Positions 8,550 through 53,552 of a stretch of DNA of 64,000 nucleotides are shown one piece after another. The translations under genes and the position numbers were made by a program. Origin of the DNA: an uncultured Anaerolineales bacterium. GTDB taxonomy: Bacteria > Chloroflexota > Anaerolineae > B4-G1. The stretch is from assembly GCA_964542755.1 (NCBI GenBank), contig CAZIWL010000001.1:48234-112233 (forward strand), in the 5' to 3' direction. Within the stretch, counting starts at the first letter, position 1, and the number at the start of each line of letters is the position of its first letter. Below the pieces are notes generated by a model, which worked only from the letters and a program-made list of their open reading frames with translations, made no database searches and was not told where the DNA came from.

Positions 8550-8578
8550 TTGTCAACGCCTGAGCGTCACGGTATGAT
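8550..8578 (+). promoter_or_regulatory. sigma70-like promoter TTGTCA-17-TATGAT for the glycosyltransferase operon
   Basis: Hexamers with 17-nt spacing lie 84 nt upstream of the first GT gene and are divergent from the SBP gene. Confidence 0.45.
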
Positions 8579-8661
8579 TCTTTCTACCCGCAGGAGGTTC
8601 GGCTCGCGCACGTCGACAGTAGCCAGCCTCCTCGATTTGTCTATGGGTATCGTCGAAGTGC

Positions 8662-10746
8662 ATGACTGGAACCGAGACTGACACTCAAGATGTCCTCCGC
8701 CGGCGTGAGCTAGTTTTCCTGGTTATCGTCCTACTCACGGCTACCCTCATGCGGACGTGGCGCTTGGACGCCATCCCTCCCGGGTTGACCCACGATGAGG
8801 CTGGTCACGGACACGACGCGATAGCCATTCTGGAGGGCGCGCGGCCCATCTACCAGACCGTCGGATACGGTCGCGAACCTCTGTACGATTACTGGGTTGC
8901 TGGTCTAATGGCAATTGCTGGACGCACTCGAGAGGTCCTCAGATTCTCTGCCGTTCCGCTGGGACTGGTAACTCTACTGACGACCTTCGCCTGGGCTCGA
9001 GCGGCTTACGACGGGACAGTCGCCCTAGCGGCGACAGCGCTCCAGACGGTTGCTTTTTGGTCGCTCGCGGTCAGCCGGCAGGCTTTGCGCTCCAGTCTGT
9101 TGCCTGTTGTTTTCACAGCAGCTATCTTCTTCTTCTGGCACTCGATCTACCCTACGAGGCGCAGGCTGAGCCCGTGGCGGCTGGGCATCTTCTCGCTGCT
9201 CGTGGGGGCGACGTTTTATACCTACGTCCCGGCTCGAGTACTCTGGATTCTGTTCCCCATTTTCCTTGCTTACCTGGCCATTTTCCATCGAAGGACGTTC
9301 CAGAGGGTCTCCGCGCCCATCCTCGCGGCCGTAGGTGCAGGGTTGCTGATGGGGGTGCCTCTCTTCGTGTTCCTGAAGCGCCATCCCGGAGCGGAGCAGA
9401 GGCTCGCGATGCTGGATGCACCCCTTAGGGCGCTCCTGGCTGGTGATCCCTCCGTCGTCCTCAACCGCGCTGGGCGTTTCCTGGCGGGTCTGACGATCCC
9501 TGGGCGTGGCGACAGTTTTCTAGCCTACACCATTCCGGGCCGTCCCATCTTCGGCCTGCTCACGGGTGTTCTCTTCCTGATCGGGGTTGGACTCTGTGTG
9601 GTACGGTGGCGCGAGCCGAAGAATGCCTTCTCGCTCCTCTGGTTCGCCCTCGGGGTCTCTCCCTCCTTGGTCACTGGTCCGGCCGCCAGTACGACGCGCA
9701 GCGTCGCTGCGCTTCCGGTGATCTTCCTGTTCCCAGCCATCGCGGTTGTCTCTGGGGCCCGATGGGCCTCTGAGCGTTGGGGGAGCGTGGCCTCCTGGGT
9801 GATCGGTCTGGCGGCTGGCGGTCTCCTGCTGGGTGTGGGCGGCGTCACCATCCAAGACTACTTCGTCACCTGGGGTGAGTCTCCCCACACACGCGCAGCC
9901 TATCAGCACACATTGGTTGAACTGGCGGCCTACCTGGACAGCCAACCGGAGGATGGGGTGGTGGGCATCTCAACCGACCAGCCGCTCGCGCCCCACGACC
10001 CTTACGTCTTCCAATTGAGTCTCAAGCGCAGGGATCTTTCTGTCCGCTGGTTTGATGCTCGGCGAGCGATTGTCGTTCCCGAGCGGGCGCGGGCTAGGCT
10101 CGTGATTCCCTCAAGTGCCACGCCCCCGCCGATCCTGGCCGAGCTGCCTGGCCTTCAATGCATGGAGCGTGTGCAAATGCGGACGGACGACCTCGATCCC
10201 TGGTTCGAAGTATTTGAGTGGCAACCCCGGATGACGCGGGCGGAAGTCACCGAGAGGATGGACGACAGTGCGAACGTGTCGGGCGAGGCGGTCCTGTCTG
10301 AAGAGGGGGGGCGAACCTCCCTCGGACTCCCTGCAACTTTTGGGGGCGCTCTGGAGCTTCTGGGCTACGACTTGCTGACACCAGTCGTCGGCGTGGAGGA
10401 GATCCAGCTGTTGACAGTCTGGAAGGCTACGAACCCCGACGCGATCAAGGCGGCGGATCCCGCGGATGTGGAGGACGAACCCGTGGTTTTTGTCCACGCC
10501 CTGGATGGAGAGGGGGCCTTGCTTGCTCAGGAGGACCGGCTCGATGCGCCTGTCTGGAGCTGGGAAGAGGGCGATATGATCCTCCAGATCCATCGCTTGG
10601 CGCTACCGCCCGACCCGGATCACGGCCCTCCCACCCTCTCCCTCGGCGTCTATCGGCGAACTGATATGAGACGACTCCCGGTGACCATCAAGGACAAGGT
10701 GGTCGGGGATTCCCTCTTACTCCCCACGGTGCGGGTCGAGGGCTAG
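8662..10746 (+). CDS. GT-C fold glycosyltransferase, PMT_2/ArnT-like (GT39/GT83-type), paralog 1
   Basis: Polytopic N-terminal domain with a loop-1 motif AIPPGLTHDEAGHG and an EPLY box, plus a C-terminal conserved roughly 120-aa domain. Confidence 0.8.
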   Translation: MTGTETDTQDVLRRRELVFLVIVLLTATLMRTWRLDAIPPGLTHDEAGHGHDAIAILEGARPIYQTVGYGREPLYDYWVAGLMAIAGRTREVLRFSAVPLGLVTLLTTFAWARAAYDGTVALAATALQTVAFWSLAVSRQALRSSLLPVVFTAAIFFFWHSIYPTRRRLSPWRLGIFSLLVGATFYTYVPARVLWILFPIFLAYLAIFHRRTFQRVSAPILAAVGAGLLMGVPLFVFLKRHPGAEQRLAMLDAPLRALLAGDPSVVLNRAGRFLAGLTIPGRGDSFLAYTIPGRPIFGLLTGVLFLIGVGLCVVRWREPKNAFSLLWFALGVSPSLVTGPAASTTRSVAALPVIFLFPAIAVVSGARWASERWGSVASWVIGLAAGGLLLGVGGVTIQDYFVTWGESPHTRAAYQHTLVELAAYLDSQPEDGVVGISTDQPLAPHDPYVFQLSLKRRDLSVRWFDARRAIVVPERARARLVIPSSATPPPILAELPGLQCMERVQMRTDDLDPWFEVFEWQPRMTRAEVTERMDDSANVSGEAVLSEEGGRTSLGLPATFGGALELLGYDLLTPVVGVEEIQLLTVWKATNPDAIKAADPADVEDEPVVFVHALDGEGALLAQEDRLDAPVWSWEEGDMILQIHRLALPPDPDHGPPTLSLGVYRRTDMRRLPVTIKDKVVGDSLLLPTVRVEG

Positions 10747-10760
10747 GGGGCAGTCACACG

Positions 10761-12830
10761 GTGCCACACGCTAAGCCCAGTGGATCACGCTTCCCGCCGT
10801 CGTACCGGCGTGCTGCGATTCTTCTGATCCTGGCCGTGGCCGTCTTCTTCCGTCTGTACCGCCTGGACGCCGTTCCCCCGGGCTTGACCCACGACGAGGC
10901 GGACACAGGCTACTTTGTCGCAGCAGTCCACCGTGGAGCCCCATCGAGAATTGACATTCCGTACGGGTATGCGTACAAACCCTTCACTCAATACTCCGGG
11001 GCTCTTTTCATGGCTTTGTTCGGGCCGACTGATCTTGCGCTCCGTCTACACTCCGCATTCTTCGGCACGCTGCTGGTCCTCTTCACGTATCTTTGGTGCC
11101 GGGAGGCGTTCGGCACGACGGTGGGACTGGGGAGTGCTGCCATGGTGGCCGTGTCGTTTTGGACTGTGTGCGATAGCCGTTTCGCCCTGAACTCAGCGCC
11201 GGCCCCGGCCTTGTTCACTGGGAGCGCGTATTTCCTGTGGCTCGCGCTTAACCGTGACGTTGGCAGGCCCCTCTGGTGGGCCTGGGGCCTCTTCGCTCTC
11301 CTGTTGGGCGGGTCTCTGTACGTCTACGAGGCGGCGTTGGCGGCAGCGTTGTCTCTCATCCTCCTGCTGCTCTATTTGGCCCTAACGGATCCCAAGCTCT
11401 TTCGTCGTCAAGGCCCTTGGTTTGGTGGCGCCCTTATCCTCGCCACGCTGCTAGCTGCACCCCATCTACTCGATTCCTCGTCATGGGGACGGACGAATAC
11501 GCTGTCCGGTCCGCTGCTGGCGGCCAGTCGCGGGGAGCTGGGCCCCCTGTTCAGAAATGCCGTCAGCGCGTTGGGGACCTTCAGTTTTCGCGGAGATACC
11601 CTGGTCACGTACAATCTGCCGGGGCGCCCGATCTTCGATCCGGTGACGAGTCTGTTCTTCTACGGCGGGTTGGCGCTATCGCTCTGGCGTTGGAGAACCC
11701 CTGCCTATGCTTTCCTAGTGATGTGGTTGATGACCGGGATTGTCCCCTCACTCGTCATCGGTGAGTGGACCAGTACGCTGCACAGCAAGGCTGCCGAGAC
11801 AGCGATCATGACCCTGCCCGTGGTCGGTGCTGTTGCCGCCGGTCGCGCCATCCGCGTACATCTCGGGCGGAACTGGTTCAGGCTGTTTGCCGGTGCTTGC
11901 ATCGTCTGGTTGGTCGTGATCGCAGGGCTGACGGGATACGACTATTTCGTCCGCTGGGGGCAGGCGCCGGAGACCCGTGCTGCGTACTTCAGCAATCTGG
12001 CGGCCATCACGGACTACCTGAATGAGATCGACTACAGTGGGCCGGTGTCTCTCTCGTCACCGTTTCCGGATCTCCCTCACGATCCCTTGGTCGCCCAGAT
12101 GCGCCTCCACCGCGAGGATCTGTCGCTGCGCTGGTTCGATGCCCGTCGTGCCCTTGTCTTTCCTCAAGCTGATCATGCGCTACTGATTATACCGCCGAAC
12201 ACGCCGCTGGCTGATCCGTTTGCTGGTCGGCTCGGTCTTCGGTTGGTGGAGCGTGTCGAGTTGAAGCCCGACGACATAGATCCATACTTCGACGTCTTTG
12301 AATGGCCTCCCAACACGGCGCTCTCCGAACTCTTGACGCCGGCATCTGGTATCGCACATGCGGGAGGTGAATCCCTTGAGCTGCCGGTCAGCCTGGGGGG
12401 GGGCGTTGAGCTGGTCGGCTACGAGGTAGCGGAACAACGGCTGGCGCCCGGGGAGACCATCGATCTGATCACTTTCTGGCGACTCAAGGTCGGCGCGGGA
12501 TCTTCATCAAGCCACCCTTTGGGAAACGTGCCTGAGGACGCGTTCGGCCACAGCCTGACCCTATTCACCCACCTGGTTGATGATGGGAACCACGTAGTCG
12601 CCCAGGAGGACCGGCTCGACGCCCCCGCCTGGAACTGGCACGGCGGGGAGACGGTGGCCCAGATCCACCGCCTACAAATCGGTCCCGACGTCGAACCCGG
12701 CGTGTATCATCTCCAGGTGGGGATCTACGACAACCACGACCCGGAACTGGCTCGTCTCCCCATCGTCGTCGACGGCGAAGTGGTCGGCGACAGCGTCCGT
12801 CTCCAACCGCTGGAGGTCACGGATTCGTGA
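10761..12830 (+). CDS. GT-C glycosyltransferase, PMT_2/ArnT-like, paralog 2 (GTG start)
   Basis: AVPPGLTHDEADTG motif, polytopic, with the shared C-terminal domain. Confidence 0.8.
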   Translation: MPHAKPSGSRFPPSYRRAAILLILAVAVFFRLYRLDAVPPGLTHDEADTGYFVAAVHRGAPSRIDIPYGYAYKPFTQYSGALFMALFGPTDLALRLHSAFFGTLLVLFTYLWCREAFGTTVGLGSAAMVAVSFWTVCDSRFALNSAPAPALFTGSAYFLWLALNRDVGRPLWWAWGLFALLLGGSLYVYEAALAAALSLILLLLYLALTDPKLFRRQGPWFGGALILATLLAAPHLLDSSSWGRTNTLSGPLLAASRGELGPLFRNAVSALGTFSFRGDTLVTYNLPGRPIFDPVTSLFFYGGLALSLWRWRTPAYAFLVMWLMTGIVPSLVIGEWTSTLHSKAAETAIMTLPVVGAVAAGRAIRVHLGRNWFRLFAGACIVWLVVIAGLTGYDYFVRWGQAPETRAAYFSNLAAITDYLNEIDYSGPVSLSSPFPDLPHDPLVAQMRLHREDLSLRWFDARRALVFPQADHALLIIPPNTPLADPFAGRLGLRLVERVELKPDDIDPYFDVFEWPPNTALSELLTPASGIAHAGGESLELPVSLGGGVELVGYEVAEQRLAPGETIDLITFWRLKVGAGSSSSHPLGNVPEDAFGHSLTLFTHLVDDGNHVVAQEDRLDAPAWNWHGGETVAQIHRLQIGPDVEPGVYHLQVGIYDNHDPELARLPIVVDGEVVGDSVRLQPLEVTDS

Positions 12831-14860
12831 CTGATCGTCGCCTGTGCAAATGGGCCTTTGTCGTCCTGCTGCTCCTGGTCGCCTGGGGCCTACGGATCGG
12901 TTGGCTGGAGGCAGTCCCTCCCGGCTGGCGTGACGATGAACTGATCAACATCCACGCTCTCTCCAACCGGTTGCTGGAAGGGGAGTTTCCCCTCTACTAC
13001 CTGGGGGCCTCCGGCCACGAACCGCTGTACCATCATCTCCACGCAGGGGTGCTGGGGGTACTCGGGTTCAACGTGTTGAGCGGGCGACTCCTGTCGGCGA
13101 TGTTCGGCACCCTGTCCATCTCCTTGACCTACACCCTGGCCCGCCGCCTCTTCCCCGATGCGCAGGCAGTGGCCAATGTCGCCGCGGCGACATTGGCAGC
13201 GTCCTTCTGGTCTTTGATGTACAGTCGCACGGCCATTCGACACATCAGCCTGCCCCCGTTCATCCTGGCGACGGTTTACGCCTTTTGGCGTCGGCTCGAC
13301 GGCCCGGGATCCAGGCCCTGGGCCTGGATCCCGGTGGGGTTGTTGCTGGCGGCAAGCCTTTACACGTACACCGCCTCGCGGCTTCTCCCTGTTCTTCTGA
13401 TTCTCTTCGTGGGGTACCTGGCGGCTGTCCATCGGCCGCATCTACGCCGGCACTGGCGGGGGATCGGGCTGGCGTTCCTGGTGATGACGGTTCTCGTCGC
13501 CCCGCTCGGCGTGGCCATTCAGCGGGGGCGAAGCACGCGTGCCTTGGAAGGCATCGGGGCCGACGCCCGAGTCACGGAGCTGGCGAAGCCCCTCCGCGCC
13601 CTTCGGGATGGAGATCCATCCCAGCTCTTGGCCTCAGTGGTGAAGACGCTGGGCATGTTCCACGCCAGCGGCGACCCTGAGTGGCTCTACAACATCCCGG
13701 GTCGTCCCATCTTCGGTGTGCTGGGAGGAATCCTCCTCTGGCTCGGCGTGGGGCTCTCTCTCTACCGCTGGCGCGAGCCCCGTTTCTTCTTCTTGATCGT
13801 CTGGTTGGGCATAGGCCTGACGCCGGCTTTCATCAGCACCCCGCCGGCCAGCCTGGGACACACGATCGTCGCGCAGCCGGTGGCCTATCTCATGCCCGCT
13901 GTCGCCCTGGTCGGGATTGGACGATGGGTTGAGGGACAGACGTCAACGCGTGTGTCTCGGGGCCGAGCTACTAGAGGGGCGCGGCGAGCGGCGATAGGCC
14001 TGGTGTTGATTGCCTTCGTGTGCAGCAACGCGGCCCGCGACCTCTGGGACTATTTTGTGGTCTGGCCCCGTCGTGGCATGGTCCGCCTCCTCTACCGCGC
14101 CGATCAGAGGAAGATTGCCGAGTATCTCAACGAGCAAGTCGGCTATACCGACATCGCCGTGGGAAGCGGACTGATGGGCCCGTGGGACCGGATCGCGCTG
14201 ACGGTCGATCTCGAGAGGCCGGATGTGGCACCGAGGCTTTTCCATCCCGAACGGGCCCTAGTCTGGAAGCAAGGAGCGAACCCGATGCCCGTCTTCCTGC
14301 CCGGCTGGCCGGAACCGTCCGACGCCATTGAGGACTCTCTGGCAGGAGGGCGGCTGATATCGGAACATGTGAGTGTCCATACGCCGAGGAAGAGTCTCAC
14401 CTCATCATTCGAGACCGAGGAGGTGACCTTTGCCAACGGGCTGACGCTCCTGGCGGCCCGTCCGTTGCAGCAAGGGCGCGAGCAAGAAACCGTGAGCATC
14501 ATCACCGCTTGGCGTGTCTCCGAACCCCTTGAACTGCCGCCTATGCCCGTTGTGGCGCAGCCTCCCCCGCCGAAGACGTACGCGGGGCCCCGTTTGGCCG
14601 TCTTCGCTCACCTGCTCGGGAAGCAAGGCGAGACGCTTGACGTTGATGATGGGCTATGGGTGGATCCCTTGACGCTTCGACCCGGCGACCGGTTCCTCCA
14701 GATCCACCGTTTCTCCGTCGCCTCGGAGGGTGCATCGGTGCCGTCCGCGCTGGTCGTCGGTCTCTACGACCCAAAGACGGGAGAGCGCTGGCAAACTGTG
14801 GGAGAGGACGGCGGGGCTGGTGCGCATCGAGTCACCATTCCGCTGGGGGACCCTCAGTGA
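12827..14860 (+). CDS. GT-C glycosyltransferase, PMT_2/ArnT-like, paralog 3
   Basis: GTG start overlaps the upstream TGA (GTGA). AVPPGWRDDE and HEPLY motifs, with the shared C-terminal domain. Confidence 0.8.
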   Translation: MTDRRLCKWAFVVLLLLVAWGLRIGWLEAVPPGWRDDELINIHALSNRLLEGEFPLYYLGASGHEPLYHHLHAGVLGVLGFNVLSGRLLSAMFGTLSISLTYTLARRLFPDAQAVANVAAATLAASFWSLMYSRTAIRHISLPPFILATVYAFWRRLDGPGSRPWAWIPVGLLLAASLYTYTASRLLPVLLILFVGYLAAVHRPHLRRHWRGIGLAFLVMTVLVAPLGVAIQRGRSTRALEGIGADARVTELAKPLRALRDGDPSQLLASVVKTLGMFHASGDPEWLYNIPGRPIFGVLGGILLWLGVGLSLYRWREPRFFFLIVWLGIGLTPAFISTPPASLGHTIVAQPVAYLMPAVALVGIGRWVEGQTSTRVSRGRATRGARRAAIGLVLIAFVCSNAARDLWDYFVVWPRRGMVRLLYRADQRKIAEYLNEQVGYTDIAVGSGLMGPWDRIALTVDLERPDVAPRLFHPERALVWKQGANPMPVFLPGWPEPSDAIEDSLAGGRLISEHVSVHTPRKSLTSSFETEEVTFANGLTLLAARPLQQGREQETVSIITAWRVSEPLELPPMPVVAQPPPPKTYAGPRLAVFAHLLGKQGETLDVDDGLWVDPLTLRPGDRFLQIHRFSVASEGASVPSALVVGLYDPKTGERWQTVGEDGGAGAHRVTIPLGDPQ

Positions 14861-17100: not shown

Positions 17101-19639
17101 GACCGCAGGCGACCGGCTGCAAGGAGTGGACGGCTTGCTCGCGCTGGCGTATCTCGGGGTCGCGGCGGCGACCACCTGGCCCCTCGTCCGCCACCTGACG
17201 AACGCTCTCCCAGGGCGCACATTGGACGCCCACATCCACTACTGGAATGGCTGGTGGGTTGGGGAGGCGCTGCGCCAGGCACAGACCCCTTTCTTCACTC
17301 GCAACCTGTTCTTCCCCCGGGGTGTATCCCTGGTCTTTCACAACTTCGCCTGGATACACATCCTGGAGTGGCTCGGGCTGCGAACGATGGTTGGGGGCAT
17401 CACGGCCTACAACTTGGCCTTCCTCCTTAACCTGGCGCTCTGCGGCTGGGCCGCTTTCCTCCTCGTACGCCATCTCACCCACGACAGACGGGCGGCTTTC
17501 CTGGGAGGGCTGATCTACCAGTGCTGGCCCTATCGCATGGCCCAGCTCGACCATCCGAATCTGATCAGCACGTATGCCATACCCCTGTTCTTGTACTTCC
17601 TCCTGCGCACGCTTCGCGAACAGGAATGGCAGGCAGGTCTCCTGACCGGCTTCTTCTTCGCCCTGACCGGTTACACTCGATGGCAGCTTCTGATCCCAGC
17701 ATCCATCATTGGGACGTTCATCCTCCTGTTCACCGTCCCGCATGTCTGGGCCTGCCGCCGTGATTGGTTGCGTCCCATGCTCCTTGGTGCTGGGGTGACG
17801 TTGCTAGCCCTGACACCTCCGGCGCTGCTCTTCGGCACGGAGTGGCGGACCACCTCGACGGAGCTCGTGAAGGAGGTGGATGAAGCGGCACTCCAGACCG
17901 ATGTGATGGCATATCTGACGCCGGGTGCAGATCATCCGGTCTTCGGGGCTGTGACCGGGCCTGCGTACGAGCGTTACTATGGAGACCGCAGTGGAGGTCG
18001 GCGGTTTCCGGCATACTTGGGCCTTACGGCCATAGTGCTAGCGGCCCTGGGTGCTCTGCGGAGGCCGCGGGAGGCCCTTCCCTGGTTGCTTGCGGCGGCC
18101 CTGATGGTTGCGCTGGCTCTCGGACTCAATCTGCGCGTCAACGGGCGACTATACCCGGCACTCCCAATGCCCTATCGCCTGTTCAAAGAAGCTTTCATCG
18201 TACGTCTTGTACGCTTCCCGGATCGATTCAGCCTTTTCACGGCTCTGCCGATGGCCGTATTGGCCTCATACGGAGCCTCATATGCCATGGGTGTCTTCCA
18301 CCGCCGGACCGGGAGGTCGCCGCTGGTCGTTGCCGCCCTGGTCACGCTTTTGGTTTTCGGCGAGTTCTTGGCAATCCCTGTCCCGCTGCAAGAGTCTCGA
18401 GGGTCTCCAATCCACGCACTGCTCGCCGCTGACGTGGATGACTTCGGCATCTTGAACGTGCCCGTCGATGCGCAGACGTGCAAGCGATACATGTTCGAGC
18501 AGACGCTTCATCAGCGCCCGATCCTCCAGGGGCACGTATCCCGTCTGCCGCTGGACGCGTACGACTATCTCGATGGACAACCGCTGTTGAAGAAGCTGCG
18601 TCAGTTCGATGAGCTGGATCCTCGGCTCACGGACGTCAGCGGGCAGTTGCACTCCCTGGCCAGGGACGACGTGAATTACCTCGTTCTCCATAAGCGAGAC
18701 GTCGGGGCCGGCCGTCTGGCCCGTTGGCGACGCTATCTCCTATCAAGGCCCCGATACGAGGACGACGACATCGCTGTCTTCTCGACCTCCCCTGTCGGCG
18801 GCGAGGATTTCGAGCTGATGGAAGAGCTGGCGACCGGACTTGGGCCAGTTCGGATCGAAGGTGCAGAGGCGTGCGCGAACCCGGGTGACAGCCTGCCGAT
18901 CAATGTGGGTTGGGGGACCGCGGAGTCGCCCGGTCAGGACCTGGTTCTGCAATTGGCACTGCTTTCTCACGATGGCGAGGTGGCGCAGGCGTCTGAACAC
19001 CAGGTATCCTCTGGCTGGTCAACGAGTGATTGGCCTGCCCACACTCTAGTCTGGGGATATTACGTTGTGCCCCTGGATGTCTCGCTACCACTGGATTCCT
19101 ACCGAATGCGGCTCGGTCTAATTGACGGGCAAACCGGAGCGATGTCCGGTCCCTCAATGACCGTCGGCACGGTGAGAATCACGGAGTCCCAGTGCTCTGG
19201 CTCGATCCCGGCGGGGGCGATGCCGGTGAACGCTCTGTTTGACGACGCCCTGCGTCTGCTGGGTTACAGGATCCATCGAGAGGAGGGGCAGTTGCGGCTC
19301 ACACTGCACTGGCGCTCCCAGCGGACGATGGACGTGGACTACAAGGTCTTTGTTCACGTCTTCGATCTCACCTCCGGTCAGCCGGTGGCTCAGGACGACG
19401 CCATGCCCCGGCGGTGGCGGTTACCCACCACGCTGTGGTATCCTGGACAACGTGTGGAGGATGAGATCCCTATCGATATGCAGGGCGTCGTCCCCGGAAC
19501 GTACGGCGTCGCCGTGGGGGTGTATGACCCGGATACTACGGAGCGGCTGACGGTCGTGAATGCCGGGAGCGGCTTTGCTCAAGACGGGCGACTGATCCTG
19601 TCTGGAGAGACCGTCAGGGTTGTCGAGGAGGACAGATGA
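17087..19639 (+). CDS. large polytopic membrane protein, a distinct GT-C-like family (PTPS-related or YfhO-like), with two copies of the shared C-terminal domain
   Basis: Overlaps the upstream gene by 14 nt, has more than 10 predicted TM helices, and carries the recurring ..VFVHV.D...G..VAQDD.. domain twice at its C-terminus. Confidence 0.7.
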   Translation: MGTGETAGDRLQGVDGLLALAYLGVAAATTWPLVRHLTNALPGRTLDAHIHYWNGWWVGEALRQAQTPFFTRNLFFPRGVSLVFHNFAWIHILEWLGLRTMVGGITAYNLAFLLNLALCGWAAFLLVRHLTHDRRAAFLGGLIYQCWPYRMAQLDHPNLISTYAIPLFLYFLLRTLREQEWQAGLLTGFFFALTGYTRWQLLIPASIIGTFILLFTVPHVWACRRDWLRPMLLGAGVTLLALTPPALLFGTEWRTTSTELVKEVDEAALQTDVMAYLTPGADHPVFGAVTGPAYERYYGDRSGGRRFPAYLGLTAIVLAALGALRRPREALPWLLAAALMVALALGLNLRVNGRLYPALPMPYRLFKEAFIVRLVRFPDRFSLFTALPMAVLASYGASYAMGVFHRRTGRSPLVVAALVTLLVFGEFLAIPVPLQESRGSPIHALLAADVDDFGILNVPVDAQTCKRYMFEQTLHQRPILQGHVSRLPLDAYDYLDGQPLLKKLRQFDELDPRLTDVSGQLHSLARDDVNYLVLHKRDVGAGRLARWRRYLLSRPRYEDDDIAVFSTSPVGGEDFELMEELATGLGPVRIEGAEACANPGDSLPINVGWGTAESPGQDLVLQLALLSHDGEVAQASEHQVSSGWSTSDWPAHTLVWGYYVVPLDVSLPLDSYRMRLGLIDGQTGAMSGPSMTVGTVRITESQCSGSIPAGAMPVNALFDDALRLLGYRIHREEGQLRLTLHWRSQRTMDVDYKVFVHVFDLTSGQPVAQDDAMPRRWRLPTTLWYPGQRVEDEIPIDMQGVVPGTYGVAVGVYDPDTTERLTVVNAGSGFAQDGRLILSGETVRVVEEDR

Positions 19640-21627
19640 GCCGAGGAGGGACGTGGGCACTCCTCACCTTGATTCTGCTACTAGCGGCCGTGCTCCGCTG
19701 TTGGAGTCTCGGGGACGTGCCTCCGGGGCTGAGCCACGACGAAGTGGCCAATGGCTTGATCGCTCGCCAGATCCTGGGCGGCCATCACGCCATCTATTTC
19801 ACCCGGGCTTATGGACACGAGCCGCTGTATCAGTACGTCCAGGCAGGAACGGTGGCACTCTTCGGGGAGCATTGGCTCGGGCTGCGCTGGCCCTCCTTCG
19901 CCTTTAGCCTCCTGGGCCTGGCTTCCGTCTATTCGCTGATGAGGCGCTTGTTCAGCCGTGCCGTCGCGCTGATGACCATCTCTGGCCTGACCATCGGGTT
20001 CTGGCCTTTGTTCTACGCCCGGGTCGGTATCCGGGCCATCAGCCTGCCGTTTATCGGTGCCCTGGCTGCCTATTGCCTGGTTCGCACGTTGGATCGGGAA
20101 TCCGACACCTCTGTCCTCGGCATCCCTTGTCACGTCCTGGGAGGGCTCCTCCTGGGGTTGAGTCTCTACACGTACATGGCTGCGCGCGTGCTGCCCTTCG
20201 TCCTGGCAGCCTTTGTCCTCCACCGGGCCTTGATCTCCCGGGAGAGAGACCTCCCCTGGGTTCGAGTGCTCGTCCTCTTTCTGGCAGCAGCTCTGATTGC
20301 CTCGCCGCTTCTGGTGTGGCTGGCCCGTCATCCCGGCGCTGAGTACCGGATTGCCGAGGTCCGTCGGCCGCTGGACCAACTGCTGACCGGGGACCCCTCC
20401 CTGGTCTGGCACAATCTAGTTGCCAACTTCGGCTTTTTCGCGATCACCGGGGATCCTTGGCCGCACCAGGGCATCCCCGGACGACCGGTCTTCGCAGAGC
20501 CCGTGGGGGCGGCGCTCTTCTACATGGGGCTGGGTATCGCCATCTGGCGCTGGCGCACGCCGCGGTTCGGCTTCCTCCTCATCTTCCTGGTGGGTGGACT
20601 CCTGCCCAGCATTCTGAGCGCCCACGCGCCTCCCGGCCTTGTCTCCGACGCGCCCAGCTCGGTGCGGAATGTGCTGGCCCAGGTGGTCGTCTTCGTCTTC
20701 CCGGCGTTGGCACTCACTGAGAGCTGGCGGTGGCTTCGGAGACGGCTGGACAAGCAAGGGGCGGTGCTCTCCAGAGCGCATCGCGTGGCGGTGGTCGCGG
20801 CGTTGCTGCTGCCATCTCTGTTGCTAACCGTGGGTGACTACTACGTCCGGTGGCCGCGCCGCGAGGATGTCCAGTACTTCTACCAGGCTGACCTGACGGC
20901 TGTGGGCCACCATCTGGACGCCCTCGGTCACCACAGTGCCGTCACTGTTGGGGGACTCTCTGTCGACTCGATGGATCGACCGACGCTGGCCTTCACCGCT
21001 CGGGCGAGTGTGCAGGACGTACGACTCTGCGATGTCCGCGAGACGCTCGTGATCCCTGTTGGCCTGGGGGCGCACGTGCTAGTGCCCCACGTTGTCCCGT
21101 TTGGCGAGGGACAGCCCTTGCGTGACCGGCTGGCTTCGTGGTCCACGGTTCAGGTCGCTGACCGTTTCGACGCCTATGGGCTGGGGGACAGAGAGGTATT
21201 GGATCGCCACATTGGGGGCCTGGATCAGGGTGCGCACCTACCCGATGGCACGCCGGTGGCGCTGCCTGCCTTCTTCTCCAACCGACTTGCCCTGGTTGGA
21301 TATGAGCGAGTACCCCAGCTCGAGAGTGGCTCCGTCGGCCTGTTGACGTACTGGCGCGTCGAGGACCCCCCTTATGGTCAACTGAAGGCCTTCGTCCACC
21401 TGGTGAGAGAGGGGCAGCTGGTCGCACAGGATGACGGACTGGCCAGCCCGGCGGAGGGTTGGTCTAGTGGTGACCTTGTTGTTCAGCACCACGTGCTGAC
21501 GGCGCCGTCGGGTACGCCGCCCGGCCTTTACGCCCTGGAACTGGGATTGTATAATCCCTCGACCCTGGAGCGGCTTACCATCGCAGGTCATGATCGGGTG
21601 CTCTTGAATCCGGTGACCCTCCCATGA
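19636..21627 (+). CDS. GT-C glycosyltransferase, PMT_2/ArnT-like, paralog 5
   Basis: ATGA start/stop overlap, DVPPGLSHDEVANG and GHEPLYQY motifs, with the shared C-terminal domain. Confidence 0.8.
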   Translation: MSRGGTWALLTLILLLAAVLRCWSLGDVPPGLSHDEVANGLIARQILGGHHAIYFTRAYGHEPLYQYVQAGTVALFGEHWLGLRWPSFAFSLLGLASVYSLMRRLFSRAVALMTISGLTIGFWPLFYARVGIRAISLPFIGALAAYCLVRTLDRESDTSVLGIPCHVLGGLLLGLSLYTYMAARVLPFVLAAFVLHRALISRERDLPWVRVLVLFLAAALIASPLLVWLARHPGAEYRIAEVRRPLDQLLTGDPSLVWHNLVANFGFFAITGDPWPHQGIPGRPVFAEPVGAALFYMGLGIAIWRWRTPRFGFLLIFLVGGLLPSILSAHAPPGLVSDAPSSVRNVLAQVVVFVFPALALTESWRWLRRRLDKQGAVLSRAHRVAVVAALLLPSLLLTVGDYYVRWPRREDVQYFYQADLTAVGHHLDALGHHSAVTVGGLSVDSMDRPTLAFTARASVQDVRLCDVRETLVIPVGLGAHVLVPHVVPFGEGQPLRDRLASWSTVQVADRFDAYGLGDREVLDRHIGGLDQGAHLPDGTPVALPAFFSNRLALVGYERVPQLESGSVGLLTYWRVEDPPYGQLKAFVHLVREGQLVAQDDGLASPAEGWSSGDLVVQHHVLTAPSGTPPGLYALELGLYNPSTLERLTIAGHDRVLLNPVTLP

Positions 21628-21928
21628 GTGCAGGCGAGATTTCTCCCCGGGATGATATCCTTTCCGTGCTTCGGTATCCAGAGGTGTGCGCGACCAGAGT
21701 ATGGTGTGCGCGAGGGTGGAAGACCACGGATTCCTTTGAGGCCGTGAGTCGCCGGTCTCCGCGCTGCCGACGTAGAGGCTTTGAGCTCAATCGAGGGAGC
21801 GATGAGTCGTGGATCGATGATTGCGCTGTGGGAACCGCCGGCAAGGGGCGTCACAGAGAGGCTGCCTCCTATCCAAATGCCGGAACCCAGGTCGACGCAG
21901 GACGGCTGTCCCGGCACGGGGGCATATC

Positions 21929-23602
21929 GTGAGCCTTGAGAGATCGGAGAGAGAGCGAAGCAGCGGAATCCGCGTTGCGCAGCGCTTCGCACCCCGCTGG
22001 GCCGTGGTGGCGCTGCTGCTCCTCTCGTGGGGTTTGGGGTTAACCAGTCTGGTCCAGAAGTCGGCGACGATGGACGAGCAGAACCACATTGCCCGCGGCG
22101 CTGCCTACCTGGGCACTGGCGATCCCCGGCTCAGCGTCGAGCACCCACCCTTGGTCAATGTGCTCAGTGCCCTCCCTGCCCACCTGCTCCTCGATCTCCA
22201 TCTTCCTCTCGACCAGTGGTGGGAGGCTGGCGAATGGTATCACTTCGCCGACAACTTCCTTTGGCAGGCGAACCAGCGTGCCGATCTCATTGTCTTCCTG
22301 GCTCGCCTGCCCGTCATGGGCTTGGGACTGTTGTTGGTCTCCCTCATCTTCCGTTGGGGGCGAGATCTGTTCGGCCCCTGGGGAGGCACGCTTGCTGCCG
22401 CCTTCTGCGCCCTGGATCCCAACATCCTCGCTCACCAGCGGCTGTCGACAACGGACCTCGGGGGGACGTTCTTTGCCGTACTGGCTGCCTACGCCTTCTG
22501 GTGCCTCTCCCGTCGTCTAACGCCGGGTCGGCTGGTGGTCGCCGGTCTGGCACTCGGCCTTGCCTTCGCGGCCAAACTCTCAGCGCTCATCTTCGGGCCT
22601 ATCCTCGCCCTGTCCTTCCTGCTGGCGGGCCTCGCCGAGCGAGAGGAGCGTGTCCGGCGCCTTTCGGGCCGCGCGGCGATGGCTGCCGTGGCAGTCGTCT
22701 TCTCACTTTTCGTGGTCTGGGCCAGCTACCTCTTCCGGCTGGAGCCAGTTGAGGGACTCCGATGGCCCGTGCCAGCCCCCCCATACATCCGGGGCATACG
22801 GGCCGTACTCAATCTGGCGGGTGGAGGACGCCCCGGTTATCTGCTGGGCGAGACCAGCACAGAGGGCTGGTGGTACTATTTCCCGGTCGCCCTGGCCGTC
22901 AAAACGCCGCTGCCAACCCTACTGGGCTTGATTCTGGCTACGGTCGCGCTGGCACGCCGACCTAGATCGGGGGATGTGTTTGTTGCCGTCCCGCCGCTGT
23001 TGTTTTTCGCAGCCCTTACCACGGCGCGGCTCAACCTTGGTTACCGTCACCTGCTGCCTGTGCTTCCGTTTTTCGCGCTGCACATCGGGCGCCTGGCCGA
23101 ACCCTCGGTCTGCTGGTTCAGGCGACGCGACCCGGCTCGACTCGCCGCTCTCCTGCTCACCGCCTGGCTCGGCGTCGGAACGCTTGTGCTGTACCCTCAT
23201 TTCCTGGCTTTCTTCAACACCATCGGTGGTGGGCCGGAGAATGGCTGGCAGGTCTTGGTCGACTCAAACATTGATTGGGGGCAGGATCTGATCGGCCTCC
23301 GGCGGTGGATGGAGCAAGAAGGCGTCGATTGCGTCCGGCTCGGCTGGTTCGGGAGCGCCCCCCCGGAAGCGTACGGCGTCCGTCACGAGCTCCTGCCGGG
23401 GTTGCCCCACGGCTATGAGCTGTGGCGCGACCCACCGGTCGACCTTGACCAGCCCGAGCCTGGTGTATACGCTATCAGCGTCACCAATCTGGTGGGCGCC
23501 GTGCTTCCAGATCCCGCGCTCTATAGTTGGTTCTTGGGATGTGAGCCTGATGCTCGGATTGGCTATTCTATCTTCATCTACCGGGTGGAAGAAGGACGAT
23601 GA
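21929..23602 (+). CDS. GT-C glycosyltransferase, PMT_2-like, paralog 6 (short form without the shared C-terminal domain)
   Basis: EHPPLVNVL motif. A TM segment precedes the first ATG, so a GTG at 21929 (GGGGG RBS 6 nt upstream) is proposed. The start is uncertain. Confidence 0.6.
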   Translation: MSLERSERERSSGIRVAQRFAPRWAVVALLLLSWGLGLTSLVQKSATMDEQNHIARGAAYLGTGDPRLSVEHPPLVNVLSALPAHLLLDLHLPLDQWWEAGEWYHFADNFLWQANQRADLIVFLARLPVMGLGLLLVSLIFRWGRDLFGPWGGTLAAAFCALDPNILAHQRLSTTDLGGTFFAVLAAYAFWCLSRRLTPGRLVVAGLALGLAFAAKLSALIFGPILALSFLLAGLAEREERVRRLSGRAAMAAVAVVFSLFVVWASYLFRLEPVEGLRWPVPAPPYIRGIRAVLNLAGGGRPGYLLGETSTEGWWYYFPVALAVKTPLPTLLGLILATVALARRPRSGDVFVAVPPLLFFAALTTARLNLGYRHLLPVLPFFALHIGRLAEPSVCWFRRRDPARLAALLLTAWLGVGTLVLYPHFLAFFNTIGGGPENGWQVLVDSNIDWGQDLIGLRRWMEQEGVDCVRLGWFGSAPPEAYGVRHELLPGLPHGYELWRDPPVDLDQPEPGVYAISVTNLVGAVLPDPALYSWFLGCEPDARIGYSIFIYRVEEGR

Positions 23603-25659
23603 CGCTGTGGACGGATGCTGGAAGCGACGCCCGTCGGCGAGCTGAGCTCTGGCTGATGGTCGGTATCCTCCTCGTCGGCACCTTCTTTCGCTTCCTCTCT
23701 CCGACCACTGTGCCACCGGGCCCCTCGCATGATGAGCTGAGAATGATGCAGTTGGGTGAGCTAATCGTCGACGGCGAGCGTCCCCTCCACTGGAAAATCA
23801 GCTATAGTGCCGAGCCTCTGTACATGTACTTCCTCGCCTTCGCGATGAGGATCTGGGGTTTCACCCCGTTCGCCGCCCGCCTGGTAACCCGCTTCGCGGG
23901 ACTTCTCCTTGTGGCCGGAACCCATCACTTGATCAGACGGCTCTTCGGACGGCCGACAGCGCTTCTCACAAGCGGGGTCATGGCTATTAGCTGGTGGCCT
24001 CTCTTCTTCAGTCGGGTGGCCCTACGGGGTCTCACACTCCCTTTGTTCTTCACCGCGGCTGTCTTCTGCCTGTGGGTGGGCTTGGACCTGGGGCGACGCA
24101 CGCGGGGACACCGGAGTGCGCATCTGCGTTGGGGCTGGCTCGTCACGGGTGCAGCCCTGGTCGGGCTCACTTGGTACACGTTCACGGGGGCTCGCAGCAC
24201 CAGCCTCCTCCTGCCCATCCTGCTCCTCTATCTTGGGGCACTTGGGATTCTGCCCCAGCATCAGCTGTGGCGGGTTACTGTGGTGACGCTGGTCGTTGCG
24301 GGACTGGTAATCGCCCCTTTTGTCTATGAAGTGACAGTTCACCCGGGAACTGCTGAGACCCGCCTGGATCAGCTTGGCGGAATCATTGAGGCCCTAAAAT
24401 CTGGCAATCCTCTTCCATTCGCCAGAGAGGTGGCGAATACCCTGGGCGTGTTTGTGCTGACGGGCGATCCCAACTGGCGGTACAATCTGTCGGGGCGTCC
24501 GCCATTCGGTCCCGGTCTCGGTTTTCTCGCCTCGCTAGGTTTCGTGGTCAGTCTCTTCCGATGGCGGCAACCGCGTTTCTTCCTGCTCGTGGTCTGGACT
24601 CTGTTAGGGCTCTCTCCGGCCATGCTCACCCCCGAGGCTCCTAGTTTCGTTCGAGGGATAGGCGCGCTGCCGGCGATTGTCGTTTTCCCAGCCGTGGGGG
24701 CGATCGCGCTCTGGGATTGGTCCGTGTCTGGAATCGGGTGGAGAGTGCGTCGCCTCGCGATCCTGGTCGTTGTCCTTCTCCTCGCTCTCAACGGACTCGA
24801 CGTGTTCCGCGACTACTTCCTGACCTGGCGCACCCAGCCCCAGGTCCACGAGATCTACCAGACCGCGCTGACCGAGGCATTTCGAGATCTGAGTCACAGC
24901 CATCTGACGGGGGAGATATGGGTCTCTGAGCCCTTCCCCGACGATCGGCACCTGCTGCTGGCTGATCGGATGCTCCGTCGCGAGGAGATCGACCTGCGCT
25001 GGTTCGACGCAGAGCGAGGGCTCATTCTCCCGCCCGCGGAGGGTTCCCGACGCTATCTTATCCCTGGTTTCGTCGAGCCCGATGGAGCACTCTTCAGCCG
25101 GTGGATGGGGGAGACCGTCACGCTACTGCGGGGAGACCCACCCCCTGGGGCTCCCTCCTACCATCTCTATCAGGTCACGGGCGGGCCAAGGATAGAACGC
25201 GAACTGTCGGACATCGCGGTGCAATCCACGGCATCGCTCGATCTACAGGGAGATAGACCGCTGTCCCTGCCCATTCATTTCAGTGAGAGGGCGCATCTGA
25301 TGGGCTACGAGCTCGACGACGCGGTCGTCAACGTCGGGGGCGAGGTGCGGCTGGTTGTCTACTGGCGGGTCGCCGGTCCCGTGTATGAACCCCTGGCGAG
25401 CTTTGCCCATCTGATTGATAGCCAGAACGGCGTGGTTGGACAGTATGACGGCTTTGATGTCCCGCCCTGGCACTGGAAACCTGAAGCCATTGTCGCCCAG
25501 ATCTATCGCTTCCGCGTCGGGGAGGCAGCACAACCCGGTGAGCACTGGCTTGAGGTAGGGCTGTATCGCGCGGACACGATGGAGCGGGTGCCAGTGGTAG
25601 ACGACGCCGGCACCTCGCTGGGAGACCGTGTCGTGCTGCCTAGCGTGATGGTGAAATAG
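23599..25659 (+). CDS. GT-C glycosyltransferase, PMT_2/ArnT-like, paralog 7
   Basis: ATGA overlap with the upstream gene, TVPPGPSHDE and AEPLYMY motifs, with the shared C-terminal domain. Confidence 0.8.
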   Translation: MTLWTDAGSDARRRAELWLMVGILLVGTFFRFLSPTTVPPGPSHDELRMMQLGELIVDGERPLHWKISYSAEPLYMYFLAFAMRIWGFTPFAARLVTRFAGLLLVAGTHHLIRRLFGRPTALLTSGVMAISWWPLFFSRVALRGLTLPLFFTAAVFCLWVGLDLGRRTRGHRSAHLRWGWLVTGAALVGLTWYTFTGARSTSLLLPILLLYLGALGILPQHQLWRVTVVTLVVAGLVIAPFVYEVTVHPGTAETRLDQLGGIIEALKSGNPLPFAREVANTLGVFVLTGDPNWRYNLSGRPPFGPGLGFLASLGFVVSLFRWRQPRFFLLVVWTLLGLSPAMLTPEAPSFVRGIGALPAIVVFPAVGAIALWDWSVSGIGWRVRRLAILVVVLLLALNGLDVFRDYFLTWRTQPQVHEIYQTALTEAFRDLSHSHLTGEIWVSEPFPDDRHLLLADRMLRREEIDLRWFDAERGLILPPAEGSRRYLIPGFVEPDGALFSRWMGETVTLLRGDPPPGAPSYHLYQVTGGPRIERELSDIAVQSTASLDLQGDRPLSLPIHFSERAHLMGYELDDAVVNVGGEVRLVVYWRVAGPVYEPLASFAHLIDSQNGVVGQYDGFDVPPWHWKPEAIVAQIYRFRVGEAAQPGEHWLEVGLYRADTMERVPVVDDAGTSLGDRVVLPSVMVK

Positions 25660-25875: not shown

Positions 25876-25904
25876 TTGACAGGAGGCATGGTCCGTAGTA
25901 GAAT
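25876..25904 (+). promoter_or_regulatory. sigma70-like promoter TTGACA-17-TAGAAT
   Basis: Lies about 100 nt upstream of the DUF11/Fn3 protein gene. Confidence 0.45.
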
Positions 25905-37411: not shown

Positions 37412-37948
37412 CTAGCCCTTCGTCCGCACCAGGTGGATCGTCGTTCCGGCTCGGCTGCTCTTGGTGGCGCTGGTGATCTGCAGGTTGCCTACGTCGGCCT
37501 TCGTCGTCACGCGAGCCTGGAACGCCGTGCCCAGGGGTCTCGATGCGATGACGCCCAATGTCCCGACAGCGCAGGCCAGGGGGAGCCTGGACAAACGCTC
37601 AAGCACACCTTCGTTCTCGTCCTTGGTCATACCCCCCAGCGCCAGGAACGCCCCCAGCCCCGCGATGACCCCGGCGACGGCGTAGTTGGAACCGCAGTTG
37701 GGGTGAACGGCCAGGCCTCGTTGTCCCGCTTTCAGCCGTCTGAGTCCGTCCTGAGCGGCCTCCAGGAGCTCCCGGGTGTCGACGTCCCCGTAGACCGTGA
37801 ACCCCCAGATGGACGAGCGGCCCATCAGTCTCACGTTTCCTCCCCGTTCAGCGAGAATCTGTAGCGTCGCGTGCTCCAGGGCATGATTCCTGCGCACACT
37901 GGAGATGGCGGGGAGATCCAGGAACGATGAGAGAAGTCCTCCACTCAT
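37412..37948 (-). CDS. conserved hypothetical protein, family not recognised
   Basis: Start moved to MSGG (RBS GGAGG). NHALEHATL and HPNCGSNYAV motifs are present. Confidence 0.5.
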   Translation of the reverse strand: MSGGLLSSFLDLPAISSVRRNHALEHATLQILAERGGNVRLMGRSSIWGFTVYGDVDTRELLEAAQDGLRRLKAGQRGLAVHPNCGSNYAVAGVIAGLGAFLALGGMTKDENEGVLERLSRLPLACAVGTLGVIASRPLGTAFQARVTTKADVGNLQITSATKSSRAGTTIHLVRTKG

Positions 37949-50328: not shown

Positions 50329-50385
50329 TCGAGCGGTGTGTCTAACGTCGTAGATCAGTAGCCCTGCAGCATCGTATCCGTAAAG

Positions 50386-50426
50386 GAGCTCAGGGAGGGA
50401 GGACTGAATCCGCTCTCCCTGAGCTC
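50386..50426 (+). other. 12-bp perfect inverted repeat hairpin (GAGCTCAGGGAG/CTCCCTGAGCTC) after the 531-aa gene
   Basis: Seen in the sequence; it lacks a clean U-tract. Confidence 0.5.
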
Positions 50427-50450
50427 TTCATTATCCTAGAGAGGGACGCT

Positions 50451-51450: not shown

Positions 51451-51456
51451 AGCTGA

Positions 51457-53548: not shown

Positions 53549-53552
53549 GCTT

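Follow-up and report, generated by a model that had tools for sequence, protein, structure and literature searches.

Sugars are added outside the membrane by GT-C glycosyltransferases, which use polyprenyl-phosphate- or diphosphate-linked sugars on the extracytoplasmic face and which, to our knowledge, provide the only known route for such additions from lipid-phosphate donors. The mycobacterial wall, a major drug target, is the one well-studied case known to us in which many GT-Cs cooperate. More generally, the combination of a GT-C, a lipid-linked donor and a flippase is the established logic of periplasmic glycosylation, with synthase, flippase and GT-C as the classical components (PMC11127046); ‘more elaborate systems containing multiple GT-Cs’ are mentioned in that work only in passing. 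In archaea, MprF-like flippase domains adjoin PMT/STT3-like enzymes and were predicted on this ground to flip glycosylation intermediates (PMC5898192). Here, we describe a locus in a 64,000-nucleotide (nt) stretch of DNA from an uncultured Anaerolineales bacterium of the phylum Chloroflexota (GenBank assembly GCA_964542755.1, contig CAZIWL010000001.1, positions 48,234–112,233 of the forward strand; hereafter the window). Eight consecutive plus-strand open reading frames (ORFs), G1 to G8, span window positions 8662–25659 and are predicted to encode GT-Cs throughout. We propose, as a reading that we hold to be slightly on the probable side, that the locus encodes an extracytoplasmic assembly line in which several enzymes use polyprenyl-phosphate-sugars to build a glycoconjugate of the Anaerolineae envelope.

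Each of the eight products has an N-terminal polytopic region of ~400–440 amino acids (aa). The Pfam family PMT_2 (PF13231; gathering score 26.1 bits) matched G2 (41.9 bits), G3 (38.0), G4 (38.3), G5 (29.0), G6 (44.1) and G7 (42.4) above its gathering score, and Pfam PMT also matched G2 (22.7 bits), G3 (24.3) and G4 (26.8). G1 (22.9 bits) and G8 (15.8 bits, E 0.017, at a lenient threshold) scored below the PMT_2 value. Thus, in the profile search that a first-pass annotation of this DNA had suggested as a check of PMT_2 membership, G2–G7 hold up and G1 and G8 do not on their own. These two are, nevertheless, full-length paralogs of G2, G3 and G6 (BLASTP E 1e-49 to 1e-117).

Sequence comparison divides the array unevenly. 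G1 (8662–10746, 694 aa), G2 (10761–12830, 689 aa), G3 (12827–14860, 677 aa), G6 (19636–21627, 663 aa) and G8 (23599–25659, 686 aa) are paralogs with 28–35% identity, and hhalign relates their transmembrane (TM) domains at 100% probability; we refer to them as family A. Within it, G1 and G2 share 35% identity over the full length (BLASTP E 2e-117), and G8 shares 29–31% with G1, G2, G3 and G6 (E 1e-61 to 1e-70; hhalign 100%). G4 (14857–17100, 747 aa, GTG start) resembles family A by BLAST in its C-terminal domain only and reaches at most 62% by hhalign. BLAST relates G7 (21929–23602, 557 aa) to none of the remaining array genes, seven in number, the hhalign value of family A against G4 or G7 being at most 74%. 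The TM domains of G4 and G7 align with each other at 96%, as do those of G7 and a ninth gene found in relatives, gene X; by these profile comparisons, G4, G7 and X are only remotely related to one another. G5 (17087–19639, 850 aa) is the most divergent member, with hhalign probabilities of at most 35% to any other window gene and 60% to gene X, and the hhalign alignment of its family with family A is confined to the C-terminal domain. Some G5 orthologs bear PF19830 (DUF6311), and all the named ones are annotated ‘hypothetical’. Judged in this way, the array consists of five true paralogs and three separate, remotely related GT-C families (G4, G5 and G7). The first-pass annotation, which had spoken of eight GT-C paralogs and had set G5 apart as a different family, was therefore right about GT-C membership and about G5 but too generous with paralogy, which extends to five genes only.

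To look beyond sequence, AlphaFold2 (AF2) models were built for G6 (66-sequence alignment, pLDDT 91.8, pTM 0.89) and for G5 (56-sequence alignment, pLDDT 89.1). The membrane domains of both models retrieved exclusively GT-C enzymes in Foldseek, including ArnT, AglB, STT3, Pmt4, ALG12, PglB, AftA, AftB, AftD, EmbA/B, PimE and DPY19; for G5, the top matches were AglB (3e-8), human STT3, DPY19 and EmbA/B. As in the GT-C class A fold, TM1 is followed by a long external loop, the first, in which two juxtamembrane helices lie, and then by further TM helices. On the strength of profiles and models together, we assign all eight proteins as glycosyltransferases of this fold, among whose characterised families none stands out clearly as the closest by model comparison. 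No PDB sequence was matched by the profile of G6 orthologs (E≤1) or by G5, and an NCBIfam scan of the array proteins returned nothing above any cut-off. The best score against the bacterial protein O-mannosyltransferase equivalog NF058602 was 18.8 bits (G3) for a cut-off of 800 bits, the archaeal Agl23 model TIGR03663 gave weak matches for G2, G3 and G4 (15.8–34.7 bits against a 126-bit cut-off), and the MIR domain was absent from Pfam scans of the array proteins. The array proteins thus have neither of the marks of the bacterial GT39 Pmt enzymes, an NF058602 match or a MIR domain. Nor do they show the sequence relationship or the lipid A acceptor that would go with the GT83 enzyme ArnT, to which the structural identity is 13–14%. 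The names ‘glycosyltransferase family 39 protein’, ‘ArnT family’ and ‘Ara4N transferase-like’, under which NCBI and JGI list the orthologs, are annotation at the level of names only.

The acidic residues expected of GT-C active sites are found at the expected place. A D-E pair lies 5–15 residues past TM1 in seven genes, as HDE in G1, G2, G6 and G8, DDE in G3, PDE in G4 and MDE in G7, while G5 carries LDAH in its stead; the seven PMT_2/ArnT-type first-loop motifs of the first-pass annotation are hence borne out. The motif following TM1 reads PPGLTHDE in G1 and PPGPSHDE in G8. D35-E36 (G6 numbering) is invariant in 66 family-A sequences, the five window paralogs included. The 56 G5 orthologs compared agree without exception at D47, H51, W53, N54, W56 and W57; all 12 G4 orthologs inspected keep YE(S/A)xDELRH...HHPPLYY; and 16 orthologs of G7 show at least 95% conservation of D49-E50 and of the motifs EHPP and DxNIDWGQDL. 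Since six of the eight proteins have Lys/Arg clusters ahead of TM1, the positive-inside rule, together with the analogy to ArnT, PMT and oligosaccharyltransferase (OST), places the motif outside the cell in our prediction, which fits the known topology of those three enzymes. The topology check proposed earlier for this array agrees, then, with an outward-facing motif.

Invariance of the first-loop acidic residues also suggests that the array members are active enzymes. The question is worth asking, as the GT-C fold does not guarantee catalysis: the non-catalytic GPI-transamidase subunit PIG-U also has it. Some or all of the eight proteins could accordingly be scaffolds, or could transfer groups other than sugars from lipid carriers, and the sub-threshold Pfam scores of G1 and G8 and the missing D-E pair of G5 would suit such roles. 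However, no family, G5 included, shows any variation at its first-loop acidic residues, and PPGxxHDE is kept in precisely G1 and G8, so that we regard a non-glycosyltransferase array as very improbable.

A second recurring element lies at the other end of these proteins. In seven of them (G7 is the exception), the C-terminus is formed by a domain of ~125 residues, of which the window holds nine copies. Single copies close G1 (10297–10743), G2 (12366–12827), G3 (14402–14857), G6 (21226–21624) and G8 (25234–25656), with those of G1, G2, G3 and G8 delimited by aligning all nine copies; G4 and G5 each close with a tandem pair, at 16252–16656 and 16657–17097 (BLAST matches to G8, G6 and G5, and domain alignments) and at 18767–19201 and 19202–19636 (hhalign 99% to the family-A domain, and AF2 strands in residues 585–845), respectively. 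All copies are on the plus strand. In the AF2 models, the domain is an all-beta sandwich with a pLDDT of ~95, preceded in G6 by an alpha/beta module. Neither the window proteins nor nine scanned homologs gave a Pfam match to it, and a PDB sequence search with its profile found no match. The profile of the nine window copies nevertheless retrieved 27,788 representatives of 50%-identity clusters at E≤1e-3 (18,090 at 1e-10). The best matches hold two to four tandem copies and have N-terminal parts from at least four GT-C Pfam families, namely PMT_2, PTPS_related, YfhO (weak) and TMEM260-like; the named matches are ‘GT39’ or ‘ArnT family’ proteins of Chloroflexota/Anaerolineae. The domain family appears dedicated to GT-C enzymes. 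Across family A, W573, H588, D600, Q617, G637, Y639 and R646 (G6 numbering) are invariant. Because of the invariant Trp, His, Asp, Gln, Tyr and Arg residues and the fusion to several GT-C families, we suggest that the domain may be an acceptor- or glycan-binding module.

How the genes are packed bears on whether the enzymes act together. An independent gene call of the same DNA (a 146-kb ENA metagenome contig, ERZ27256791 contig k141_2311385) has the identical eight genes, differing in the start of G7 only, and so agrees with the first-pass annotation in its eight consecutive polytopic membrane proteins, of 557–850 aa. For G7, the ENA call starts at 22070; we set the start at 21929, because the orthologs have 544–552 aa and the later start would remove TM1. 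Stop and start codons overlap at five of the seven junctions: by 4 nt as GTGA at 12827 (G2/G3) and 14857 (G3/G4), by 4 nt as ATGA at 19636 (G5/G6) and 23599 (G7/G8), and by 14 nt between G4 and G5. A 14-nt gap separates G1 from G2 and a 301-nt gap (21628–21928) G6 from G7. The earlier count of three GTGA and four ATGA junctions does not stand, and can be approached only by including a 102-codon ORF (21624–21932) that bridges the larger gap. We rejected this ORF as a gene and treat it as non-coding: its GC contents at the three codon positions are flat (0.61/0.61/0.61, compared with ~0.68/0.47/0.74 in real genes), it is uncalled in the ENA record and it is absent in relatives. By the same token, the picture of a 17-kb translationally coupled operon fits the five overlapping junctions but is broken by the two gaps. 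Sigma-70-like promoter matches occur at 8550–8578 (plus strand, TTGTCA-17-TATGAT, 10 of 12 positions, a consensus match only) in the divergent spacer before G1 and at 21527–21555 within the 3′ end of G6. We found no convincing intrinsic terminator in the array, and an Rfam scan of the whole window showed no riboswitch, leader or other element.

Comparison with relatives was used to ask whether this arrangement is maintained. Loci were collected from exact look-up contexts and from a scan in which each GTDB species was represented by a single genome (79 loci, every one in a metagenome-assembled genome (MAG) of the class Anaerolineae), and gene order was mapped with an ORF/BLASTP script; individual loci carry L numbers. 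Hundreds of G6 orthologs with 50–70% identity exist in Anaerolineae and Chloroflexota metagenomes. In the two closest loci, L002 and L007, the order is G1-G2-G3-G4-G5-G6-X-G7-G8-DUF11, with 1:1 orthologs at 54–71% identity; L007, which extends further, continues with a flippase-like gene and SpoU. Overlaps of 4–8 nt recur at the same junctions in relatives of this type. The ortholog of G1 in L002 is 59% identical, those of G2 in L002 and L007 are 66–69% identical and those of G3 across Anaerolineales 48–66%. Overall, same-order orthologs in L002, L003, L007, L014 and L016 are 50–71% identical, as opposed to 28–35% among the paralogs within the array, and the duplications must therefore be ancient, with each copy retained together with its catalytic motif. 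The gene order with 1:1 orthologs recurs in many independent genomes, beyond chance. Instead of being broken up in relatives, which the first-pass annotation had named as grounds for abandoning its view, the array is conserved, co-directional and tightly packed.

Conservation is not uniform along the array. G2 is missing from L003, L011, L014 and L016, and G5 from L011, L013, L014 and L016, which makes these two accessory members. L014 and L016 lack G2, G5 and X and keep PhoU, a divergent solute-binding protein (SBP) gene, G1-G3-G4-G6-G7-G8, DUF11, the flippase-like gene, SpoU and PheS. Gene X encodes a ninth GT-C of ~694 aa with PMT/PMT_2 matches and the same beta-sandwich domain, and sits between G6 and G7 in L002, L003, L007 and L010. 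This is the position of the non-coding 301-nt gap in the window; in relatives without X, G6 and G7 abut or overlap. Neither tblastn nor blastn found a significant remnant of X in the gap, which may be the scar of a deletion that removed X or may reflect an insertion, the gap sequence being compatible with both a loss of X and its never having been present. The gap itself holds no clear promoter. Counting ORFs of ≥400 aa with E<1e-8 to a window GT-C, at least three GT-C genes are present in 53 of 81 loci, with as many as nine in some, and a single one in 25; these are lower bounds, as loci end at 10 kb or at contig ends. Looser arrays across the class reach 9–10 GT-C genes. The arrays of Promineifilaceae, Ardenticatenaceae, Leptofilum and Leptovillus run from a flippase-like gene on the reverse strand through a G7-like gene, family A, an Ig-like/DUF11 gene, a second G7-like gene and family A to an X-like gene. 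In Promineifilaceae and Ardenticatenaceae, a Peptidase_C39_2 plus LysM protein lies between the flippase-like gene and the first GT-C. Pfam scans of 10 ORFs from distant arrays, among them L063:6665–7753 and L056:6948–7985 (minus strand) as well as L076:15827–17050, identified such Peptidase_C39_2 plus LysM proteins, an Ig_VWA7-like secreted protein in the DUF11 position, a CotH protein and, in one array, a GT-C of GT87, which we take to be the family of mycobacterial mannosyltransferases.

These comparisons speak to the possibility that the enzymes share no pathway at all, each GT-C modifying a different acceptor, as in Gtr-like serotype conversion or in the glycosylation of lipoteichoic acid and wall polymers, with clustering the outcome of duplication history and of shared flipped donors rather than of sequential assembly. 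In its favour, G2, G5 and X come and go, order and strand are shuffled in distant lineages, several GT-C families are mixed in one array, and the gap and the internal promoter-like sites permit separate expression. On the other hand, the core order G1-G3-G4-G6-G7-G8 with its overlapping stop and start codons is kept across lineages that are 50–70% identical, which would be hard to maintain without co-expression and co-function, and every copy retains its catalytic motif. We thus consider independent decoration of separate acceptors quite unlikely, and clustering by history and shared donors equally so. For the assembly line, the ordered orthologs, the tight recurring junctions and the mixture of four sequence families in one array argue for a non-redundant, co-functioning set.

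Two further genes travel with the arrays. The first, directly downstream of G8 in the window (26007–28253, plus strand), encodes a secreted, acidic DUF11 (CLIPPER) repeat protein (DUF11 66 bits, B_ant_repeat 94.6, isopeptide-forming TIGR04226 43) with a signal sequence, two DUF11/CLIPPER repeats and Ig/Fn3-like modules; a sigma-70-like promoter match (25876–25904, plus strand, TTGACA-17-TAGAAT, 11 of 12, again by consensus only) lies in the 347-nt spacer before it. The DUF11 half of its earlier description as a DUF11/Fn3 protein is secure, whereas the Ig/Fn3-like label rests on sub-threshold Pfam matches (E ~0.007–0.01). Its acidic C-terminal domain is possibly ConA-like, given a faint 3keto-disac_hyd match (E 0.066). 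The second (28354–29337, plus strand) encodes a 327-aa MprF-type flippase-like membrane protein (LPG_synthase_TM 143 bits; TIGR00374 72 bits, cut-off 43.2). A DUF11/Ig-like secreted gene stands beside or within the array in 21 of 53 multi-GT-C loci and in none of 25 single-GT-C loci, and a flippase-like gene in 23 of 53 and 1 of 25, respectively. The latter lies within the array in L008, L019–L021, L065 and L084, and in distant lineages its commonest neighbour is a G7-like gene. Both genes are thus evolutionarily linked to the GT-C arrays. We also considered whether the flippase-like ORFs are fusions with GT2 domains, as in archaeal AglD, and rejected this, since they are stand-alone proteins of ~320 aa.

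The recurrence of a secreted protein raises a further explanation, namely that the array glycosylates proteins. In that case, at least one GT-C would act like PMT, TMTC or TMEM260 enzymes and initiate O-glycans on secreted proteins, and the others would extend the protein-bound glycan outside the membrane. Candidate substrates in the window are the DUF11 protein and two proteins with linkers rich in proline and threonine (PT), an SBP lipoprotein divergent from the array (7191–8510, minus strand; SBP_bac_8 73 bits and SBP_bac_1, lipobox LMGC followed by the linker) and a YkuD L,D-transpeptidase (40949–42079, minus strand; N-terminal TPR segment, TM helix and a linker of ~100 residues). These and the flippase-like protein were all listed in the first-pass annotation, and Pfam and sequence analysis agree on their identities. 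The first-loop D-E motif, the PMT/PMT_2 matches and the fusion of the beta-sandwich to TMEM260-like enzymes as well are what one would expect of such a system, as are the PT-rich linkers; and the recurrence of the DUF11/Ig-like gene beside or within arrays can be likened to OST genes, which can adjoin the genes of their substrates. Several facts sit poorly with it, however. The best score to the O-mannosyltransferase model is 18.8 bits for a cut-off of 800, and no MIR or TPR acceptor-binding domain is present in the array proteins. Eight to ten enzymes would need another rationale, a single Pmt sufficing in bacteria with protein O-mannosylation. The DUF11 protein is acidic and has no Ser/Thr/Pro-rich tract, and the L,D-transpeptidase gene is 15 kb from the array, among unrelated genes and not syntenic with it. 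We therefore judge protein O-glycosylation to be unlikely, though a serious contender, and the more specific suggestion made earlier, O-mannosylation of the PT-linker proteins, is possible but favoured by no result obtained here. The DUF11 protein may instead be a partner of the assembly line, and it is a candidate acceptor in either case.

Having weighed these alternatives, we return to the assembly line that we favour. Polyprenyl-phosphate-linked sugars in the outer leaflet would serve as donors, from which each GT-C, with its catalytic Asp/Glu in the first outward-facing loop and a linkage specificity of its own, would transfer a sugar to a growing extracytoplasmic acceptor. A synthase encoded at some other locus would produce the polyprenyl-phosphate-sugars in the cytoplasm, and the MprF-type protein would flip them and thereby supply the donors, while the beta-sandwich domains would keep the nascent glycan or the acceptor close to the catalytic site. 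The core enzymes G1, G3, G4, G6, G7 and G8 would build a common structure, to which the accessory G2 and G5 (and X in relatives) would add lineage-specific decorations. The acceptor would most likely be a wall-associated heteropolysaccharide or a lipoglycan, with the DUF11 surface protein as a binding partner or an alternative acceptor. Chloroflexota are without lipopolysaccharide and BAM machinery, and for their extra envelope layers, whose origin is unknown, polysaccharide or protein has been proposed (PMC13319060). Gene structure, GT-C identity, motif conservation, domain architecture, synteny and the flippase-like/DUF11 linkage were all computed directly and are the ground on which this scheme is built. 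With it, the complex glycan assembly suggested in the first-pass annotation lives on in the form of an envelope glycan, which the flippase-like/DUF11 linkage helps to make the best reading, as a functional proposal.

Several observations weigh against this scheme, and we would note them together. The 301-nt gap and the internal promoter-like matches permit more than one transcription unit. The structural similarity of the beta-sandwich is generic, since the matches extend to NPC2, RhoGDI, arrestin and factor XIII barrels, and so does little for glycan binding in particular. A recurrent secreted DUF11/Ig-like protein fits a protein acceptor equally well, and that stand-alone LPG_synthase_TM proteins act as flippases is a prediction in its own right. 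By Pfam, no GT2 polyprenyl-phosphate-sugar synthase or nucleotide-sugar gene occurs in the 30 flanking window ORFs (to ~59.5 kb), nor any GT2 synthase among the 10 ORFs scanned beside distant arrays. No donor synthase having been found, the donor pathway is one that we infer in its entirety; the donor type, for which we go by fold and motif, the flipping, the order in which the enzymes act and the identity of acceptor and sugars we likewise infer. Finally, the relatives retrieved are MAGs or metagenome contigs throughout.

The wider surroundings of the array are of a housekeeping kind, with genes for a dihydrolipoamide-dehydrogenase-like protein, PhoU, a SpoU methylase, PheS/PheT and the DNA polymerase III delta subunit. 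The SBP gene, which encodes a family-1 member and has PhoU upstream, is an orphan transcribed divergently from the array, no ABC permease gene being adjacent to it; a divergent SBP gene is likewise found upstream of the array in the Anaerolineales loci L003, L005/6, L012, L014, L016, L080 and L083. The protein is reminiscent of mycobacterial LpqW and other lipoproteins of the SBP fold with a regulatory role in glycolipid pathways.

Elsewhere in the window, positions 48733–59455 (plus strand) hold a gene run typical of tetrahydromethanopterin (H4MPT)/methanofuran-type C1 metabolism, which looks unusual for a genome of Anaerolineae. Its members include DUF2193 (749 bits), Flavoprotein, a Ni_insertion fragment, Mpt_N (the N-terminal domain of methylene-H4MPT dehydrogenase) and ATP-grasp_3, as well as molybdopterin-oxidoreductase-like (possibly FwdB-like) and Amidohydro_3 (possibly FwdA-like) proteins. 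Ahead of the run, 45472–47412 (plus strand) encodes the selenocysteine-specific elongation factor SelB with GTP_EFTU and SelB winged-helix domains, which implies the use of selenoproteins and is possibly linked to the downstream molybdopterin enzyme. Two ORFs on opposite strands, 51719–53548 (plus, 609 codons) and 51752–53752 (minus, 666 codons), overlap almost completely; the plus-strand one has no Pfam match at E≤1e-5. The product of 38876–40888 (plus strand), 670 aa long and bearing an InhA-like MAM domain, is probably secreted and metalloprotease-like, and 37412–38026 (minus strand) encodes a DUF6391 protein.

If the assembly-line reading is correct, it would provide a second, phylogenetically independent multi-GT-C assembly line and would show the strategy to be general. 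The array is maintained throughout a class of bacteria that abound in the environment and in wastewater. It would also supply specific genes as candidates for how the multilayered envelope of Chloroflexota, for which the question of monoderm versus ‘neoderm’ is open, is composed and formed. In addition, it lends the support of bacterial genomes to the predicted role of stand-alone MprF-like proteins as flippases of glycosylation donors. The beta-sandwich family, having no Pfam match in the scanned proteins and no solved sequence relative, would merit a Pfam entry and a structure. We tentatively raise a bolder possibility, in which we have limited confidence: that arrays of up to 9–10 GT-Cs, with an MprF-like polyprenyl-phosphate-sugar flippase and a DUF11/Ig-like protein, build the non-lipid outer layers of Anaerolineae (a wall polysaccharide or a glycoprotein sheath) outside the cytoplasmic membrane, exceeding the Emb/Aft system and independent of it, and that the beta-sandwich is a new, widespread family of acceptor-glycan-binding modules dedicated to GT-Cs. 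Our searches of the full-text literature found no prior description of GT-C/GT39 arrays in Chloroflexi, Chloroflexota or Anaerolineae. What is new is the contiguous, class-wide array of 8–10 genes, its linkage to MprF-like and DUF11/Ig-like genes, and the unannotated beta-sandwich family; the enzymes themselves are of a known kind.

Set against single characterised enzymes, the array differs in several respects. ArnT, the GT83 undecaprenyl-phosphate-L-Ara4N:lipid A transferase, shares the fold at 13–14% identity without a profile match to PDB sequences; unlike it, G6 has an additional beta-sandwich domain, and lipid A is excluded as acceptor, as Chloroflexota have no lipopolysaccharide pathway (PMC13319060). 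Compared with the GT39 Pmt enzymes (fungal Pmt1/2/4 and actinobacterial Pmt), the array proteins are without the MIR domain, remain far from NF058602 (18.8 versus 800 bits) and number eight to ten per locus where there is one Pmt. The three-component systems (GtrA/B/C, pentofuranose; PMC11127046) are similar in that a GT-C gene adjoins a putative flippase for lipid-linked sugars and transfer takes place outside the membrane, as we predict here. Of their components, GT-Cs are present in the window, eight rather than one, and a flippase-like gene is present and linked but belongs to a different family (MprF/LPG_synthase_TM, not GtrA, SMR or MATE), while no polyprenyl-phosphate-sugar synthase gene was found adjacent to the array. 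The archaeal neighbourhood of arCOG00899 (MprF-like), arCOG00563 (PMT/STT3-like) and an AglD-like GT2 (Makarova et al. 2015, PMC5898192) resembles the locus in linking an MprF-type gene to GT-C genes, and G2, G3 and G4 have the weak TIGR03663 (Agl23) matches given above, far under the 126-bit cut-off. The present array, by contrast, is bacterial, has no adjacent AglD-like GT2 gene and consists of many genes with a beta-sandwich accessory domain.

The closest functional analogue is the mycobacterial set of aftA-embC-embA-embB, AftB, AftD and PimE/Mpt. There are clear differences between the two. No similarity exists at the sequence level, and structure-based identity is 10–15%. No genes of the decaprenyl-phospho-arabinose pathway lie near the array in the window scan, the putative flippase is MprF-like instead of SMR-type, and the host phylum is Chloroflexota. 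Eight to ten genes are adjacent here and four there. As to accessory domains, the beta-sandwich modules that Emb and AftD enzymes have outside the membrane bind carbohydrate; the domain of the array belongs to a different, unannotated family. What the two would share is the overall design: several GT-C families outside the membrane, polyprenyl-phosphate-sugar donors and, by our proposal for the array, one envelope glycan. Tandem paralogs in one cluster are common to both, and AftA, AftB, AftD, EmbA/B and PimE structurally match the models of G6 or G5.

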